Positions 2,394-7,534 of a stretch of DNA of 7,815 nucleotides are shown piece by piece; within the stretch, counting starts at the first letter, position 1; the number at the start of each line of letters is the position of its first letter. The position numbers and the translations under genes are program-made. This stretch comes from a virus (taxonomy: Duplodnaviria > Heunggongvirae > Uroviricota > Caudoviricetes). The stretch lies in the IMG/VR virus record IMGVR_UViG_2690316227_000004; one strand, 5' to 3'. The notes under the pieces were generated by a model. The model made no database searches and was not told the DNA's origin. It was given only the letters and a program-made list of their open reading frames with translations.

Positions 2394-4305
2394 TCACTCC
2401 TCCGGACAGCTTCGCTGCCAGTTCTTTCAGGGTTGGCCGGGTCGTCTCTTCTTCCCGGGATTTTGCCAGTACAGCCAGATCAAGCTGCCAGCGTTGCACG
2501 GACACACGTAATGCCGCGTAGGCATACACCAGGCAGTCCAGCGCTTCGTTACGCCGCTTTTTGTTATCCCACAGCAGACGCATCTTTCCTTTTTCCCACT
2601 TCTCCACCAGCTCTTCCGCCACCAGTTGCTGCGCCTCTGTCTGCGAAAAAATCTCCGGATCATCAGGAAAACGGATGGCATACGACGTGGCTTCATCCGC
2701 AGGCGAGGGATCGGCTTTCATACGGGCATAGAGAATTTCTTTTGCGGTGTCCGTTCCCACTTCACACAGATACACGCCCCGCTGATTGCGGGTTTTTGGC
2801 ATGGTGATCACCGGCTTGCCATAGACAGATGCGCCTTTTACCGGCAGCACCCGGAAAACACCGTGTTTTTTTGATCTCTGATAAACAATTTCACCATCGA
2901 TCCCCCCGGTGTCCCAGCAGACACGGGAAATAGTCATTTCGGTGCCATCCGCATGGCGGTATTTTTTGTTGATCGCCGCATCCACACGTAACAGCGTCTC
3001 TTCCTCATCAGGACGCCCCATAATGATGATTTTATCCACCAGAAAGGCTTCCTCTCCCGGAGCCCATCCCCAGACATACATCTCAAAACGGTTTCGCTGC
3101 GAGTCAATGCCCGCCGTCAGATAAACCACCCGGGCAGGCACCGCCGCCGTGTAACGCACCACCTTATCCATCAGTACCTGGTGATCGAGTTTTTCGCCCA
3201 CGGCCTCTTCCCAGGTCTCGCCCAGCGTGGTGTTCACAAAGGTTTTCAGGCCGTTGGGATCTTTCAGTGCATCCAGCCAGTCATAGACAATCTGTACCCA
3301 GGTGGTGAACGGACTGTACGCCGTCCAGATATGGAACGTGATGGAGCGCGGCGGCGGAATTTCATCACCCCGGGCGCTGAAAAACGTCAGACCGTCACGG
3401 GTCCACATGCCCGTGTTTTCACAGATCCACCGCCCGTTGCTCTGGTCCAGTTCAGACTGATGGATCACGCAGCCATGATGTTCACAGAGGTAGAAAACAC
3501 TTTCAGGGCTGTCCTTCTCCCATTTAAGCCCAAAAGGCGTGGACTCATCGCCAAATTTCAGATACTGCTCCTCCCCACAGTGCGGGCAGGGCACATAAAA
3601 ACGCATAAAATGCGCCGACTCGTTAGCGGCTTTTTCGATCTGGCAGGTGCCTTTGATTTTAGGCGTCGAGCCGCGAATGGATTTTGGCCACACCGACCCC
3701 TCAATACGCTTATCCCCCAGCAGGGTTGGCGAGCCCTCTTTTTCGACATCCGGCTCGAACGAGGAAAGTTCGTCATAGCAGACCACGTCCACGGATTTTT
3801 CACGGTAGTTTTTGGCGGCAGCGCCGCCCAGGCACCAGAAACCGACGCCCGATGAAAAGCGTTTCAGCGTGAGAGTATTGTCACGATGTTTACGACCCAG
3901 CCATGGGGAAAGGTCTTTCAGGCATGGCACGTTCCGAATCGTCGCCTCCACGTGAGACTTCATAAAATCTTCAGCGGCAGAATCCGTGGGCTGAAAAAGC
4001 AGACTGTTTCGGGATTTATGCTCAATAAAATACCCGACCACCCCCAGCAACATCTTTGTATAGCCAACACGGGCAGATTTAATCAGATTAACAGTGCGGA
4101 TCTGATCATTCCCCATGCTGTTCATGATGGCGATCTGGAATGGCAGCGTTTTCCATTCGCCCTCACCATATGAAGATTCTTTAGGCAGATAATAATTTTG
4201 ATCAGCCCATTCAACTGGCGTCACCGGCAATGCCCTTATCAGGGGCTGTAATGCAGTTGTGACAGCGCTCATCATATTATTCAGTTGTTGCTCTGATATA
4301 TTCAT
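2377..4305 (-). CDS. A: Terminase large subunit, lambda gpA-like (642 aa)
   Basis: The ORF is collinear with lambda gpA (641 aa). Shared features are the MNIS start, VEWADQNYYLPKES, the Walker-A-like KSARVGYTK, the CPHCGEEQYLKFGD...YLCEHHGC Cys/His cluster, TAYSPFTTWVQIV, LTAGIDSQ, and KKRRNEALDC near the C-terminus. I place the start at ATG 4305-4303 (MNISEQQ...), not the track's 4362, by alignment to lambda gpA and because this gives the lambda-like short overlap with the Nu1 gene. Confidence 0.97.
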   Translation of the reverse strand: MNISEQQLNNMMSAVTTALQPLIRALPVTPVEWADQNYYLPKESSYGEGEWKTLPFQIAIMNSMGNDQIRTVNLIKSARVGYTKMLLGVVGYFIEHKSRNSLLFQPTDSAAEDFMKSHVEATIRNVPCLKDLSPWLGRKHRDNTLTLKRFSSGVGFWCLGGAAAKNYREKSVDVVCYDELSSFEPDVEKEGSPTLLGDKRIEGSVWPKSIRGSTPKIKGTCQIEKAANESAHFMRFYVPCPHCGEEQYLKFGDESTPFGLKWEKDSPESVFYLCEHHGCVIHQSELDQSNGRWICENTGMWTRDGLTFFSARGDEIPPPRSITFHIWTAYSPFTTWVQIVYDWLDALKDPNGLKTFVNTTLGETWEEAVGEKLDHQVLMDKVVRYTAAVPARVVYLTAGIDSQRNRFEMYVWGWAPGEEAFLVDKIIIMGRPDEEETLLRVDAAINKKYRHADGTEMTISRVCWDTGGIDGEIVYQRSKKHGVFRVLPVKGASVYGKPVITMPKTRNQRGVYLCEVGTDTAKEILYARMKADPSPADEATSYAIRFPDDPEIFSQTEAQQLVAEELVEKWEKGKMRLLWDNKKRRNEALDCLVYAYAALRVSVQRWQLDLAVLAKSREEETTRPTLKELAAKLSGGVNGYSR

Positions 4306-4783
4306 CAAGTAAATCCGGTAATTTATCCCCTGCCCGCGCACACTGATTTGCCCCCTTAGCAATAAGGGTTTTCAGATGGTCAAGATGGCGCGGTGTTAAA
4401 TCAGGAAACTGTCGCTGCATGGATAAAGGGATGGAATCAAGCGTACTGGATAACGCCATTGCCAGCTTACTGAGGGCAAAAATACAGAATCCGGTGTCAA
4501 TAAGCTTACCTTCGGTTACCTGATTTTTAAGTTTTTGAGCTACGGCCTGTTCTTCTGTCAGTTCAGCTCTGGCCCGAAGCAGCCTTTCCTCCAGATCGCC
4601 CTCGTCATCAGGTATTCTCTGATTGTGTTGTCGCCGCTCGCGATCTATCTCCAGTACAGTTTTAACGTCATAAAAAACTTCCCTCCCCCGACGCTCAACA
4701 GGAGGAACGCCCCATTTATCAAATGCCTGAACAGATATACCGATGGAGGAGGCCATATCACTTTTATTCAATAAAAAGGCCAT
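4277..4783 (-). CDS. nu1: Terminase small subunit, lambda Nu1-like (168 aa), with a divergent N-terminal DNA-binding region
   Basis: The C-terminal two-thirds aligns with lambda Nu1 from memory (…TGFCIFALSKLAMALSSTLDSIPLSMQRQFPDLTPRHLDHLKTLIAKG… versus …TAFCTFVLSRIAGEIASILDGLPLSVQRRFPELENRHVDFLKRDIIKA…). The N-terminal LNKSDMASSIGISVQAFDKWGVPP fits a winged-HTH region but differs from lambda. I chose the start at ATG 4783-4781 because GGAGAGGAG lies directly upstream. The longer track ORF (to 4888) would run through the cosB repeats. Confidence 0.85.
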   Translation of the reverse strand: MAFLLNKSDMASSIGISVQAFDKWGVPPVERRGREVFYDVKTVLEIDRERRQHNQRIPDDEGDLEERLLRARAELTEEQAVAQKLKNQVTEGKLIDTGFCIFALSKLAMALSSTLDSIPLSMQRQFPDLTPRHLDHLKTLIAKGANQCARAGDKLPDLLDEYIRATTE

Positions 4784-4813
4784 CTCCTCTCCATAAGCCA
4801 TCGATAAAAAGCG

Positions 4814-4960
4814 ATACAACAACCATGTGTTTTTACAAAACCATTTGATATCATTTACATTTTTCGCATTGACGACATCAAAACACATCGTAAGGTTGTT
4901 GTATTTATTTTATTTTCACCTTACTTATCAATTAGATATACCAAACAATTAAACAACAAC
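4814..4960 (-). promoter_or_regulatory. cosB-like terminase small-subunit binding region with three GTTGTTGT-core repeats in a lambda-like R3 / R2(inverted) / R1 layout
   Basis: In the Nu1 sense, AGTTGTTGTTT lies at 4960-4953 (core). GGTTGTTGTAT reads on the plus strand at 4894-4904, so it is inverted. GGTTGTTGTAT lies at 4824-4814. The last two are perfect 11-mers. Distances from the cohesive end (about 51, 107 and 187 nt) and orientations (direct, inverted, direct) parallel lambda R3, R2 and R1. The repeat sequence differs from the lambda CGTTTCC-type R sites. An A/T-rich tract with TATCAA (about 4925-4935) between the first two repeats is a possible IHF (I1-like) site. It matches the WATCAANNNNTTR consensus only partially. 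Confidence 0.55.
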
Positions 4961-4998: not shown

Positions 4999-5010
4999 AG
5001 GTCGCCGCCC
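4999..5010 (-). other. cosN cohesive-end sequence (12-nt GGGCGGCGACCT on the minus strand)
   Basis: The minus strand reads GTTACG|GGGCGGCGACCT|CGCGGGTTTTCGCTATTTATGA. From GGGCGGCGACCT through TTTATGA it is identical to the first ~35 nt of the lambda left end as I remember it. Lambda-like right-end sequence (…TCCTTTCCGG.GATCCG…GTTACG) precedes it. It lies about 215 nt upstream of the Nu1-like start, as in lambda. Confidence 0.9.
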
Positions 5011-5362: not shown

Positions 5363-5620
5363 CTACTTCGCTTTTGCTTCCGCTCGCTTACGCCGGCGCT
5401 CTTCTTTCCTCTCGGCTTTTGCCATGTCCATGAATGCCTGCATGATCGAGTTCCGCATCATGTAGCTAACAAAGTGATGATTGACACAGCCGTTGAGGCG
5501 CAGCTGCTCGCCAAACTCATCCACCGAGGCCAATGCTTCCATCATACCCTTCTCGCCTTTCATGAACTCTGAGAAGTCGCGCCCCGCTCTGGAGGCGCAT
5601 TCAATGACACGATCACTCAT
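5363..5620 (-). CDS. Hypothetical 85-aa protein with a strongly basic Lys/Arg/Glu-rich C-terminal tail; partner of the KilA-N gene
   Basis: The ATG overlaps the upstream stop as ATGA (5617-5620), which suggests translational coupling. The product is MSDRVIECASRAGRDFSEFMKGEKGMMEALASVDEFGEQLRLNGCVNHHFVSYMM...AKAERKEERRRKRAEAKAK. I do not recognise a family for it. Hairpins follow the stop. Confidence 0.6.
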   Translation of the reverse strand: MSDRVIECASRAGRDFSEFMKGEKGMMEALASVDEFGEQLRLNGCVNHHFVSYMMRNSIMQAFMDMAKAERKEERRRKRAEAKAK

Positions 5621-6114
5621 CCCGGAAGCCCGGGGATCGAAATCTGCAACTGGTTAGCCAGGGAGTTAATTTCAGCGATCAAACCAGGTTTCGTGTAGCG
5701 CCATGCCGCGAGGCCTTGTCCACAGAAGCTCGCCATGTCTTTTTTCTGATCAAACTCATGACATTTCATGTTGAGCTGCGCACTTAAGCTGTTCCGATGA
5801 TGAAGCTCTCCGGTGAAGTAATCATCGAGGACTTTATAGGCTGCATATTTAAATCCGGGGTTTAGCCATGCTGCGTAATCATAAGCAACGAACTTTCCGC
5901 CATAAGTTCCACCGTGCGCACCGCGTTCCGTAAAAACCACAGATTCGTGGTTTTTCTCCAGCTCAGCCAAGAACTCTTTGGTCTGCTTGTTTCGCAGGTA
6001 GTGGTACGGAGATTCAGATTCACTTTTACCACTGGCTTTCCACATATCAGTGAGGCAGATCATGCCATCTTCACCGATACGGATTGGTTGATTGAAGAGG
6101 GTTAATGATTTCAT
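5617..6114 (-). CDS. KilA-N domain DNA-binding protein (165 aa) with an uncharacterised ~60-aa C-terminal extension
   Basis: The N-terminal ~105 aa shows the KilA-N pattern: PIRIGEDGMICLTDMWKASGK...YLRNKQTKEFLAELEK...GGTYGGKFVAYDYAAWLNPGFKYAAYKVL. This compares with the family pattern of dG-y-n-T-mckaaGk ... tkeF ... GTWvH..lA..fA.WisPeF. I do not recognise the C-terminal 60 aa. Confidence 0.7.
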   Translation of the reverse strand: MKSLTLFNQPIRIGEDGMICLTDMWKASGKSESESPYHYLRNKQTKEFLAELEKNHESVVFTERGAHGGTYGGKFVAYDYAAWLNPGFKYAAYKVLDDYFTGELHHRNSLSAQLNMKCHEFDQKKDMASFCGQGLAAWRYTKPGLIAEINSLANQLQISIPGLPG

Positions 6115-6229
6115 AGCGTGTACCTACTCTTTGAAATGAACCTTTGCCGCACAGGAAACCAGCCCACCGAGGCTCGCCAGCACTAACTGGTATCCTCAAA
6201 GGCCCATTCCAAAGGGGCAGGTTCGGTGT

Positions 6230-6254
6230 AAAAAACATGCGTTGCGGTACGCAT
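6230..6254 (-). terminator. Intrinsic terminator (second of a tandem pair) downstream of Rz
   Basis: The minus strand reads ATGCGT-accgca-ACGCAT-G-TTTTTT-AC. That is a perfect 6-bp stem followed by a T6 run. The run is on the minus strand only. Confidence 0.5.
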
Positions 6255-6260
6255 TTATTG

Positions 6261-6284
6261 CAAAAAGCCCCGCATCGCGAGGCT
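6261..6284 (-). terminator. Intrinsic terminator (first of a tandem pair) downstream of Rz
   Basis: The minus strand reads AGCCTCGC-gat-GCGGGGCT-TTTT-G. That is an 8-bp GC-rich stem with one G-U wobble, followed by a T run. It lies about 35 nt after the Rz stop codon at 6317-6319. Confidence 0.6.
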
Positions 6285-6316
6285 CATTAAATGGACTTTG
6301 TGATTTGCAAAAAAAA

Positions 6317-6754
6317 TTATTTCAGGCATTGCGTCCTGATGTACTCCTGCAGGTAGTTAACCTGCGCGGTTATCTTGTCGATTCCACCTCGGAGACGGTA
6401 ATAATTGAGTTCAGCATCTGCTGTAAGTCCTGGGCTTTCTCCATCGCCCATGCTGCTGGCTCCGGTCGTTGACTTTGCACAGGTGGCGGAGACTTGCAGG
6501 CGCTTACGCCCAGCAGAAACATCAGCACGGAGACTTTCGATAGTCGCATTAGCATCAGCAAGCTCCTTTGTGTATCTGGCGTCAAGTTCTGCTACATCAC
6601 GTTGCCGCTTCTGCATATCAGCGATGATGGATGTGGCTTTATCGCGCTGCTCTTTGTAGGCGATGGCGTTATCACGGTAATGATTAACAGCCCATGAAAG
6701 GCAGACGATGAGGCAGATGACCAGAACGTAGATAATCGCGGTTACTCTGCTCAT
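6317..6754 (-). CDS. Rz: i-spanin (inner-membrane spanin subunit), lambda Rz-like (145 aa)
   Basis: [39 protein letters not shown]...[19 protein letters not shown]... closely parallels lambda Rz ([39 protein letters not shown]...). I place the start at ATG 6754-6752, which overlaps the endolysin TGA as ATGA. The track's earlier ATG at 6766 would add MGAT. Confidence 0.9.
6370..6555 (-). CDS. Rz1: o-spanin (outer-membrane lipoprotein subunit), Rz1-like (61 aa), fully embedded in Rz in a different frame
   Basis: The product [20 protein letters not shown]|[16 protein letters not shown]... has a signal peptide ending in the lipobox V-S-A-C and a Pro-rich mature part, as lambda Rz1 does. AAGGAG lies 7 nt upstream of ATG 6555. 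The gene is wholly inside Rz. Confidence 0.8.
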
Positions 6755-7248
6755 TGTTGCCCCCACAAACAGACTTCACGCTCAATCTCACGGCGAGTCA
6801 TCAGCCCTTTCCATTGCTTACCGCCAGCGTATGTCCAGCGCCGTAGCTGATCACATGCGCCTTTGATATCGCCCTGGTTTATTTTGCGAAGAAGCGTCGA
6901 TGTTCTGAAATTGCCAGCGCCCACGTTGTAAACGAACGAGTAAAGAGCGCCGCGCGTTGTTTCCGGTATATCGACTTTGATGTACGGGTTTATTTGTCTG
7001 GCGACCGTGGCAAGGTCTTTATTCAGGAGGGCTTTGCATTCTGCTTCGGTATACGTTTTACCGGGCATGATGTCTTTTCCGGTGTGTCCATGACATACAG
7101 TCCATACGCCAACGATATCTTCGTATGGTATGTAGCTGACACCTTCCAGGCCATCGTCACCACTCGGACCAGTGATGAGCACAGACGCTATGGCAACAGC
7201 CCCACCACCAATAGCAGCAGCAACGGCTTTTCGTAATGATGGAGGCAT
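6751..7248 (-). CDS. R: SAR (signal-anchor-release) endolysin, phage 21 R-like, T4-lysozyme/GH24 type (165 aa)
   Basis: The N-terminal weakly hydrophobic Gly/Ala-rich segment [21 protein letters not shown] is typical of SAR domains. The catalytic spacing E-x8-D-x5-T is present in [30 protein letters not shown] and the length match phage 21 R as I recall it. The ATG overlaps the holin stop as TAATG. Confidence 0.93.
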
Positions 7249-7499: not shown

Positions 7500-7534
7500 A
7501 AAACAAAAAGCCGCCAGTGTCGCCCACTGACGGC
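7500..7534 (-). terminator. Strong intrinsic terminator about 45 nt upstream of the holin start (tR'-like)
   Basis: The minus strand reads GCCGTCAGTG-ggcga-CACTGGCGGC-TTTTTGTTTT. That is a 10-bp stem. The single imperfect position is a G-U wobble in the minus-strand RNA but a C-A mismatch in the plus-strand RNA, so the structure is optimised for the minus strand. Confidence 0.75.

Follow-up and report, generated by a model that had tools for sequence, protein, structure and literature searches.

A predicted terminator and a putative pseudoknotted leader RNA between the lysis cassette and the KilA-N cargo gene of a Shiga toxin phage lineage

The DNA analyzed here is IMG/VR record IMGVR_UViG_2690316227_000004, a stretch of 7,815 nucleotides from a tailed phage (Caudoviricetes) that is called the window throughout. 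It matches Shiga toxin (Stx)-converting lambdoid phages, at 100% for the Stx1a phage Stx1_121427 and at 99.3% for phages 2851 and 1717, and all of its relevant genes lie on the minus strand, to which the window coordinates below refer. Between Rz, the final gene of the lysis cassette, and the accessory genes that follow it, two hairpins with U-tracts lie at 6230–6284, and a first-pass annotation had taken them for two tandem intrinsic terminators. The interpretation favored here, and considered probable, is that the upstream hairpin (T1) is a terminator and that the downstream hairpin (T2) is H2, the first helix of a pseudoknotted leader of the next gene. That gene, with its exchangeable counterparts in other phages, is referred to as cargo.

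The two hairpins downstream of Rz

T1 (6262–6284) begins 32 nt past the Rz stop codon. Its DNA reads AGCCTCGC at 6284–6277, a GAT loop, GCGGGGCT at 6273–6266, and five Ts at 6266–6262, and the RNA has the stem AGCCUCGC/GCGGGGCU, a GAU loop, and a U5 tract. The computed folding energy is −12.4 kcal/mol with 8 bp and −10.7 kcal/mol with 7 bp. On a d'Aubenton-Carafa-type discriminant computed with ViennaRNA energies, T1 scores +3.5 to +12.3 and passes; its absence from the terminator scan list, on which T2 appears, arose because one T of T1 was counted as stem. The chance level on both strands was taken from 30 dinucleotide-shuffled versions of the window. The window contains four sites with a score above 0, T1 among them, compared with 0.03 expected per shuffled window. 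By its sequence features, T1 is a canonical predicted intrinsic terminator, far beyond chance.

As a predicted terminator, T1 was already known from annotation. ES18, phi80, HK106, HK544, Emek (vB_SemP_Emek), mEp235, and HK75 each carry an identical or almost identical sequence that is labeled a putative rho-independent terminator, and the post-Rz terminators of these seven relatives resemble T1 in sequence, position, and orientation, with no substantive difference. Those annotations are computational predictions too, and they include no second terminator or RNA element downstream. Of 92 unique regions upstream of the leader, 85 contain a canonical terminator within ∼25 nt of H2, and the stems of these terminators, at least 15 of which are distinct, show compensatory changes. 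Identical T1 precedes leaders of three types, P22 (21 loci), phi80 (10), and phi191 (6). The part of the earlier proposal that concerned T1 is thus borne out by its stability, U5 tract, positive score, and a position kept across relatives whose stems differ, and both minus-strand hairpins with their U-tracts were found exactly where they had been placed.

The second hairpin comprises ATGCGT at 6254–6249, the loop ACCGCA, ACGCAT at 6242–6237, a single G, and T6 at 6235–6230. Its stem has 6 bp, three of them G-C, with an energy of −6.9 kcal/mol in context and −5.8 kcal/mol as a bare hairpin. Folding and scoring, the check that had been suggested for hairpin stability, therefore give an adequate T1 and a weak T2. 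The discriminant score of T2, −31 to −40, fails and argues against strong termination there. Sites of this class (scores of −45 to 0) number 19 in the window compared with 7.3 ± 2.8 expected from the shuffles, and for any one 200-nt spacer, read on one particular strand, the chance of containing such a site is roughly 9%.

Homology, a compensatory change, and RNAalifold, which finds the helix independently, identify T2 as helix H2 (6237–6254; RNA stem AUGCGU/ACGCAU, loop ACCGCA at 6248–6243). Among the matches listed, ∼190 related loci carry H2 homologues. The helix is GCGC-loop-GCGC in relatives and GCGU/ACGC in the lineage of the window (Stx phages, HK544, and Emek), the closing pair having changed in a compensatory manner from C-G to U-A (CG, 78; UA, 7). 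The same lineage has two added A-U pairs, an A-rich 5′ flank, and a 3′ flank of six to eight Us. In the window this flank is the U6 tract at 6230–6235, a lineage-specific feature that makes H2 resemble a weak terminator. Among the matches listed, a U-tract follows H2 in 21 of ∼160 loci, always 6–8 Us long and always in the Stx/HK544/Emek lineage; other lineages have a C/A-rich linker in its place, and the homologous hairpin stands without a U-tract in about 85%–90% of the loci listed.

The significance of T2 is accordingly taken to be its conservation as a predicted RNA helix and not its terminator score. Because its loop covaries with a site ∼95 nt downstream, the conserved role of T2 appears to be structural, and because that site is an internal loop of a downstream hairpin, T2 is assigned to a pseudoknotted leader of ∼135 nt. 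The idea that T2 is an independent second terminator was not upheld: the score fails, the U-tract is missing from most of the loci, and the loop has its partner elsewhere. On these sequence data, T2 is not an independent terminator, and in the Stx/HK544/Emek lineage H2 may double as a weak back-up terminator.

Two further candidates were rejected as terminators. A bidirectional terminator was dismissed since the plus-strand versions are weaker and have no usable U-tracts. The hairpin UCAGG…CCUGA (6339–6310, minus strand; −6 kcal/mol), which overlaps the Rz stop codon, scores −72, with a U8 run that starts 5 nt past the stem. This latter hairpin is conserved along with the Rz end.

Structure and covariation of the leader

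Alignment of the spacers between Rz and the next gene from ten phages resolved three blocks, namely T1, the short G+C hairpin H2, and a long imperfect hairpin of ∼95 nt that ends at the Shine-Dalgarno sequence and ATG. In the window the leader spans 6254–6122. The long hairpin (6129–6214) is supported by covariation and, for P1–P3, by RNAalifold. P1 pairs 6214–6197 with 6146–6129 (18 bp, three of them G-U), P2 pairs 6196–6193 with 6156–6153, P3 pairs 6191–6185 with 6164–6158, and P4 pairs 6181–6177 with 6170–6166. CCGCA of the H2 loop (6243–6247) forms the 5′ strand of the predicted pseudoknot; the 3′ strand is UGCGG (6151–6147), which covaries with the H2 loop and lies in a 3′-side internal loop of 6 nt that separates P2 from P1. 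The RNAalifold consensus agrees on P1–P3, and the internal loop is unpaired both there and in the single-sequence fold.

Covariation was examined in an alignment of 86 distinct sequences. Across this set, 90.2% of the cells of the leader structure are paired compared with 36%–48% in slid controls, and both partners have changed in 19 of the pairs. None of 500 shuffles reached the observed covariation score, although the sequences are related and the shuffles therefore overstate its significance. The pseudoknot helix is 98% paired, and three of its six pairs covary (UA, 53/CG, 32; GC, 36/UA, 30/AU, 19; CG, 56/UA, 6). The pattern used to collect the sequences left the H2 loop free, as well as positions 122 and 124 of the internal loop. 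The G-U pairs make the structure strand specific and hence one of RNA. Covariation thus supports a pseudoknotted leader structure that is under selection.

Six matched pairs of loop and internal-loop sequences, each defining a pseudoknot class, occur across four leader backbones. Among the matches listed, AUCUCAC with GUGAGA is found on the phi80 backbone (50 loci) and the phi191 backbone (6), UUCACAC with GUGUGA on the phi191 backbone (19) and the phi80 backbone (1), and UUCGCAU with AUGCGA in five loci. ACCGCA with (A/G)UGCGG characterizes the P22/window type, and ACCCCAC with GUGGGA occurs in a Pantoea prophage. The sixth class, UUCUC(G) with (C)GAGAA, belongs to the fourth backbone, of the HK97/HK022 type. 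For each H2 loop, the partner observed is the best or tied-best among the six internal-loop sequences. The fourth backbone was missed by the first pattern and was kept apart from the alignment of the other three types; it is present in loci L160–L163 and L165–L187 (HK97, HK022, mEp235, HK75, and others), where it follows T1-type terminators and has H2 in the form GCGCAUUCUCGUGCGC or GCGCAUUCUCCGCGC, with a loop complementary to CGAGAA downstream.

The long hairpin has the Shine-Dalgarno sequence in its base or beside it. In the window, the Shine-Dalgarno-like GUAGGU of the KilA-N gene (6122–6127) is predicted from the single-sequence fold to form a helix, P0, with ACCUGC (6222–6217) at the hairpin base. 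The mean predicted pairing probability of the Shine-Dalgarno sequence over 110 leaders is 0.79 compared with 0.55 when the upstream part is shuffled.

A coding function of the leader was considered and rejected. The ATG of a 55-residue open reading frame (6071–6238) exists only in the window lineage, the GTG start of P22 inside the leader meets a TAG stop in the window, and the backbones differ from one another by insertions or deletions of 1–2 nt. In RefSeq, the rha gene of P22 (locus L003, NC_002371.2, 1501–1556; window 6183–6124) starts at this GTG within the structured leader, and PGAP likewise starts many Escherichia coli "Rha family" genes at a GTG in the leader; in ES18 and elsewhere, the rha-type gene starts at an ATG past it. 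The GTG starts are probably over-extended by ∼19 codons because the frame hits TAG in the window and ES18 uses the post-leader ATG.

No match to the leader was obtained in Rfam 15 at E ≤ 1 for the window and four variant loci; the sole overlap is a chance 24-bit match to a microRNA hairpin whose gathering score is 86 bits. By sequence and structure, the leader therefore falls outside the C4, IsrK, pistol, hammerhead, and riboswitch families. No description of it was found in the literature searched; the lambda PreS/LPR small RNAs, the anti-small RNAs AgvB and AsxR, the Pas small RNAs, and the Minerva preprint were considered and set aside, as they concern other loci. The leader appears to be an undescribed cis-acting RNA family of a familiar kind.

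Mosaic joints, cargo, and distribution

The homology of the window to phi80, HK106, and mEp235 covers the end of Rz and T1 and stops exactly at the end of the T1 U-tract (query 148–206, window 6262–6320). This boundary, together with the occurrence of identical T1 ahead of three leader types, assigns T1 to the mosaic block of the Rz end. The A/U-rich (A/T-rich in the DNA) spacer from the Rz stop to T1, UUUUUUUUGCAAAUCACAAAGUCCAUUUAAUG/TTTTTTTTGCAAATCACAAAGTCCATTTAATG (6285–6316), is part of the same block: it is 96%–100% shared with phi80, HK106, mEp235, and others and is near-identical in phi80, HK97-like, and Stx phages. It bears a loose likeness only to the consensus for the host protein IHF, on which the Rha phenotype of phi80 and P22 depends. 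T1 accompanies the Rz end and T2 the downstream leader, and the combinations of T1, leader type, and cargo vary independently.

Comparison of this junction with those of related phages carrying different cargo, as had been recommended, thus placed the mosaic joints directly after the T1 U-tract and at the Shine-Dalgarno/ATG. The suggestion that the terminators mark a recombination scar and arrived with the neighboring module as a moron holds in so far as joints exist at these two points and T2 moves with the leader; it does not hold for T1, which moves with the Rz end. A scan found no sigma-70-like minus-strand site between T1 and the KilA-N ATG, and the aligned relatives contain no conserved −10/−35 elements there; no minus-strand site of the terminator class lies between 5363 and cos. 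With no promoter-like site from T1 to the ATG, expression of the cargo would depend on read-through of the late operon. From these features, the cargo would not be classed as a moron in the classical sense, having neither a promoter of its own nor a terminator before cos. An independently transcribed moron or small RNA is likewise disfavored by the absence of a promoter between T1 and the cargo.

The cargo that lies 3′ of the leader is variable. In the window it is a KilA-N + ORF11CD3 gene, and elsewhere other KilA-N genes, Rha (P22, phi80, and ES18), P22_AR_N + ORF11CD3, KilA-N + P63C, T5orf172/MUG113, and HNH_3 + AP2 are found. In the cargo genes of the window (5617–6114), L003, L022, and L031, unrelated N-terminal domains (KilA-N, Rha, and P22_AR_N) are fused to a common C-terminal ORF11CD3 domain, indicating that the cargo genes themselves are domain shuffled.

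The leader family occurs in P22, phi80, HK97, HK022, HK620, ES18, and Stx phages. A degenerate pattern derived from the long hairpin retrieved at least 120 IMG/VR loci. Among species-representative genomes it was found in 29, comprising 26 from Enterobacterales and three oddly labeled contigs of metagenome-assembled genomes, and the full intergenic arrangement is present in 462 of 5,426 complete E. coli genomes, with parts of it in 1,239. The gene upstream of the unit is usually Rz and in some loci is one of three families of Q antiterminator. The unit follows the Q gene directly in L128 (3860–4190) and also in L037, L055, L063, and L066. The order in L128 is Q, PR′ (TTGACA-18-CATAAT; 11 of 12 consensus positions), tR′, 85 nt, H2, the leader, an HNH gene, and a holin gene. 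Three loci contain two units ∼2 kb apart: L060 (331–384 and 2349–2402), L083 (1109–1162 and 3820–3873), and L086 (2671–2724 and 4859–4912). All four of the copies that could be inspected have their own terminator. The two copies in L083 each have their own upstream terminator and their own matched loop pair, and they belong to different pseudoknot classes. The terminators in 85 of 92 regions and those of the two-unit copies thus place the unit consistently right after a terminator in an antiterminated late operon.

The genes around the unit in the window include endolysin (6751–7248), Rz (6317–6766, stop codon 6319–6317; Pfam Phage_lysis, E = 1e-34), and the first cargo gene (5617–6114, ATG at 6114), which encodes 165 residues with KilA-N (E = 7e-16) and ORF11CD3 (E = 2e-12) domains by Pfam. 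The second cargo gene, an 85-residue entry in the open reading frame list (5363–5620), overlaps the end of the KilA-N gene and has no Pfam match; phage 2851 lists its counterpart as a hypothetical protein, and in HK620 the gene is named hkbL. Directly 3′ of it is a hairpin, AAGCCCA…TGGGCTT (5354–5333), without a U-tract. A lambda-type cos sequence, GGGCGGCGACCT followed by CGCGGGTTTTCGCTATTTATGA, is located at 5010–4999, upstream of the gene for the Nu1-family small terminase (4277–4888), so that the terminator and leader sit ∼1.2 kb upstream of cos.

The strongest terminator-like site of the window lies at 7534–7510, directly upstream of the holin gene and within the late operon, with a stem of 10–11 bp, an energy of −18.4 kcal/mol, and a score of +44.8. 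Another site, CCCGCCTATGCGCGGG at 548–533 (−8.1 kcal/mol, score +10.4), lies 50 nt past an open reading frame of 530 residues (598–2190). Both are on the gene strand and pass the discriminant, indicating that predicted intra-operon terminators recur in the late operon.

Proposed function of the unit, alternatives, and related systems

In the mechanism proposed for the unit, T1 would close the lysis cassette: by the established rules of lambdoid Q antitermination, unmodified polymerase would stop there and Q-modified polymerase of the late operon would read through. A terminator in this position would keep non-antiterminated transcription out of potentially harmful cargo, and the folded leader, by hiding the ribosome-binding site, would limit or time translation of the cargo on the late transcript. 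The pseudoknot may lock the closed form of the leader, and candidates for opening it are processing, a trans-acting factor, or the link to IHF of the Rha phenotype. Insulation from polymerase not modified by Q, as first suggested for both hairpins, is plausible for T1, whose sequence features fit, and has already been published for P22-like late operons; the role of T2 as a second insulator was not retained.

Several points weigh against this proposal. The predicted pairing of the Shine-Dalgarno sequence exceeds its control just moderately (0.79 versus 0.55). The related sequences are not independent, which inflates the shuffle statistics, and the collecting pattern fixed many core positions, so that "invariant" core columns are no evidence of conservation. 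Termination at T1, Q-dependent read-through, and repression of translation by the leader have the status of predictions. A terminator beside the leader could just mark a place where late operons have terminators and tolerate insertions. The tract of six to eight Us also persists in the Stx/HK544/Emek lineage, and some real termination at T2 is possible. Term-seq data for enterohemorrhagic E. coli Sakai are deposited in GEO (PMC7547250).

The persistent U-tract bears on the view that T1 and T2 are two independent, functional tandem terminators, together shielding the accessory genes from polymerase that Q has not modified. U-tracts stand behind both hairpins on the gene strand, the run after T2 stays at six to eight Us across the lineage, and H2 there has 6 bp rather than 4, with an A-rich 5′ flank. 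The score of −31 to −40, the occurrence of ∼7 such sites per window by chance, the homologous hairpins without a U-tract, and the covariation of the loop with a downstream site nevertheless make this view rather unlikely. A different reading dispenses with RNA function altogether and regards the region solely as a recombination joint whose hairpins are conserved "linker" DNA that aids module exchange. The positions of the breakpoints, after the T1 U-tract and at the Shine-Dalgarno/ATG, and the independent assortment of T1, leader type, and cargo would fit, but compensatory changes that keep pairing in H2, P1–P3, and the long-range pseudoknot are needless for a patch of DNA homology, and G-U pairs work solely on the transcribed strand; a joint without RNA function is considered very improbable. 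The least credible reading makes H2 an operator in the DNA, a palindrome bound by a dimeric protein, and not an RNA helix. H2 is indeed a GC-rich inverted repeat, and symmetric changes would also keep a palindrome; the loop, however, is not palindromic and covaries in antiparallel Watson-Crick fashion with a site ∼95 nt away, as expected from RNA pairing and not from operator symmetry.

Other readings accept the leader as RNA and differ in its task. RNase III processes leaders in lambda and T7, and the chief task of the leader might be RNA processing, with RNase III, for example, cutting in the P1/P2 helix of 18–22 bp. Cleavage would then separate the lysis mRNA, its 3′ end protected by T1, from the packaging/cargo mRNA and might free the Shine-Dalgarno sequence. 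The uninterrupted 18-bp P1 of the P22/window type, extended by the 4 bp of P2, and the location of the unit at the boundary of lysis and packaging genes are in line with such a role, which is still judged unlikely, as P1 of the phi80 and phi191 types contains mismatches or internal loops that break the helix and the conserved pseudoknot has no obvious part in RNase III recognition. A sensor, that is, a riboswitch-like or protein-binding RNA that sets cargo expression in response to a host or phage factor, or possibly a ribozyme, seems less likely still. The pseudoknotted fold, which is conserved across four backbones and has tandem U-G pairs and a conserved apical domain, would suit it, as would the dependence of the Rha phenotype on host IHF (cited in PMC4936722). 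Against it, the leader has no Rfam match, ribozyme and riboswitch families included; the conservation of the core is partly imposed by the search pattern; and no ligand or protein candidate emerged.

With a terminator followed by a pseudoknotted cargo-gene leader as the preferred reading, the unit can be compared with known systems. In P22-like late operons, terminators lie inside an antiterminated operon with a single promoter, and partial termination or the stopping of non-antiterminated transcription has been proposed for them (10.1101/2020.10.05.325894). The window resembles these operons in T1 and in the gene-strand sites at 7534–7510 and 548–533; the cited study, on phage L, calls the roles of the terminators unknown and covers operon positions other than that of T1. 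In some relatives (L128), the unit is directly after PR′ and tR′, the latter comparable to lambda tR′ and the 6S RNA late terminator, so that tR′ can itself serve as the terminator with which the unit begins. The terminator of the window differs in being located after Rz, at a distance of ∼1 kb or more from the late-operon start.

Upstream or internal terminators and hairpins that sequester ribosome-binding sites control the mobile endonuclease genes I-TevI, segB, and mobE of T4-like phages (PMC2988022). There, as predicted here, a selfish or accessory gene within a long phage transcript is restrained by a terminator and a stable structure that hides the Shine-Dalgarno sequence, and some of the leader cargo consists of HNH and T5orf172 endonuclease-like genes. 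In T4, however, an internal late promoter gives a transcript without the 5′ arm, and the stretch from T1 to the cargo in the window yielded no promoter; the hairpins of T4 are also simple ones that lack a pseudoknot and have no sequence relationship to the leader. The c4 RNA and ant leader of P1/P7 and IsrK and anrP of Gifsy-1 are systems of temperate phages in which antirepressor-type genes are controlled through upstream RNA loops whose sequence complements a leader site farther downstream. The leader cargo likewise includes antirepressor-like domains (KilA-N, Rha, and P22_AR_N). Unlike these systems, the leader has its complementary site in an internal loop and not at the ribosome-binding site, its pairing resembles a pseudoknot within one molecule more than a processed antisense RNA, and the Rfam search gave no match at E ≤ 1.

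A more speculative step, put forward tentatively, is that the terminator, H2, and the long hairpin together constitute a dedicated phage riboregulator, in which a leader switch would sense either a trans-acting factor or the state of the transcribing complex. The candidates are Q-modified polymerase, processing enzymes, and a host protein tied to the IHF-dependent Rha phenotype, and such a switch might time the translation of toxic or selfish cargo behind late-operon terminators.

The new element here is the assignment of the supposed second terminator to a structured leader RNA that is widespread, supported by covariation, and without an Rfam family. It precedes the interchangeable cargo genes that follow the lysis genes or tR′ in many lambdoid phages. 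If the leader controls the expression of KilA-N, Rha, antirepressor-like, and homing-endonuclease-like cargo, this would explain how late operons, essential as they are, can harbor potentially harmful cassettes, would provide a handle on the old IHF-dependent Rha phenotype, and would correct gene starts, such as that of P22 rha, that annotation pipelines have extended into the leader.

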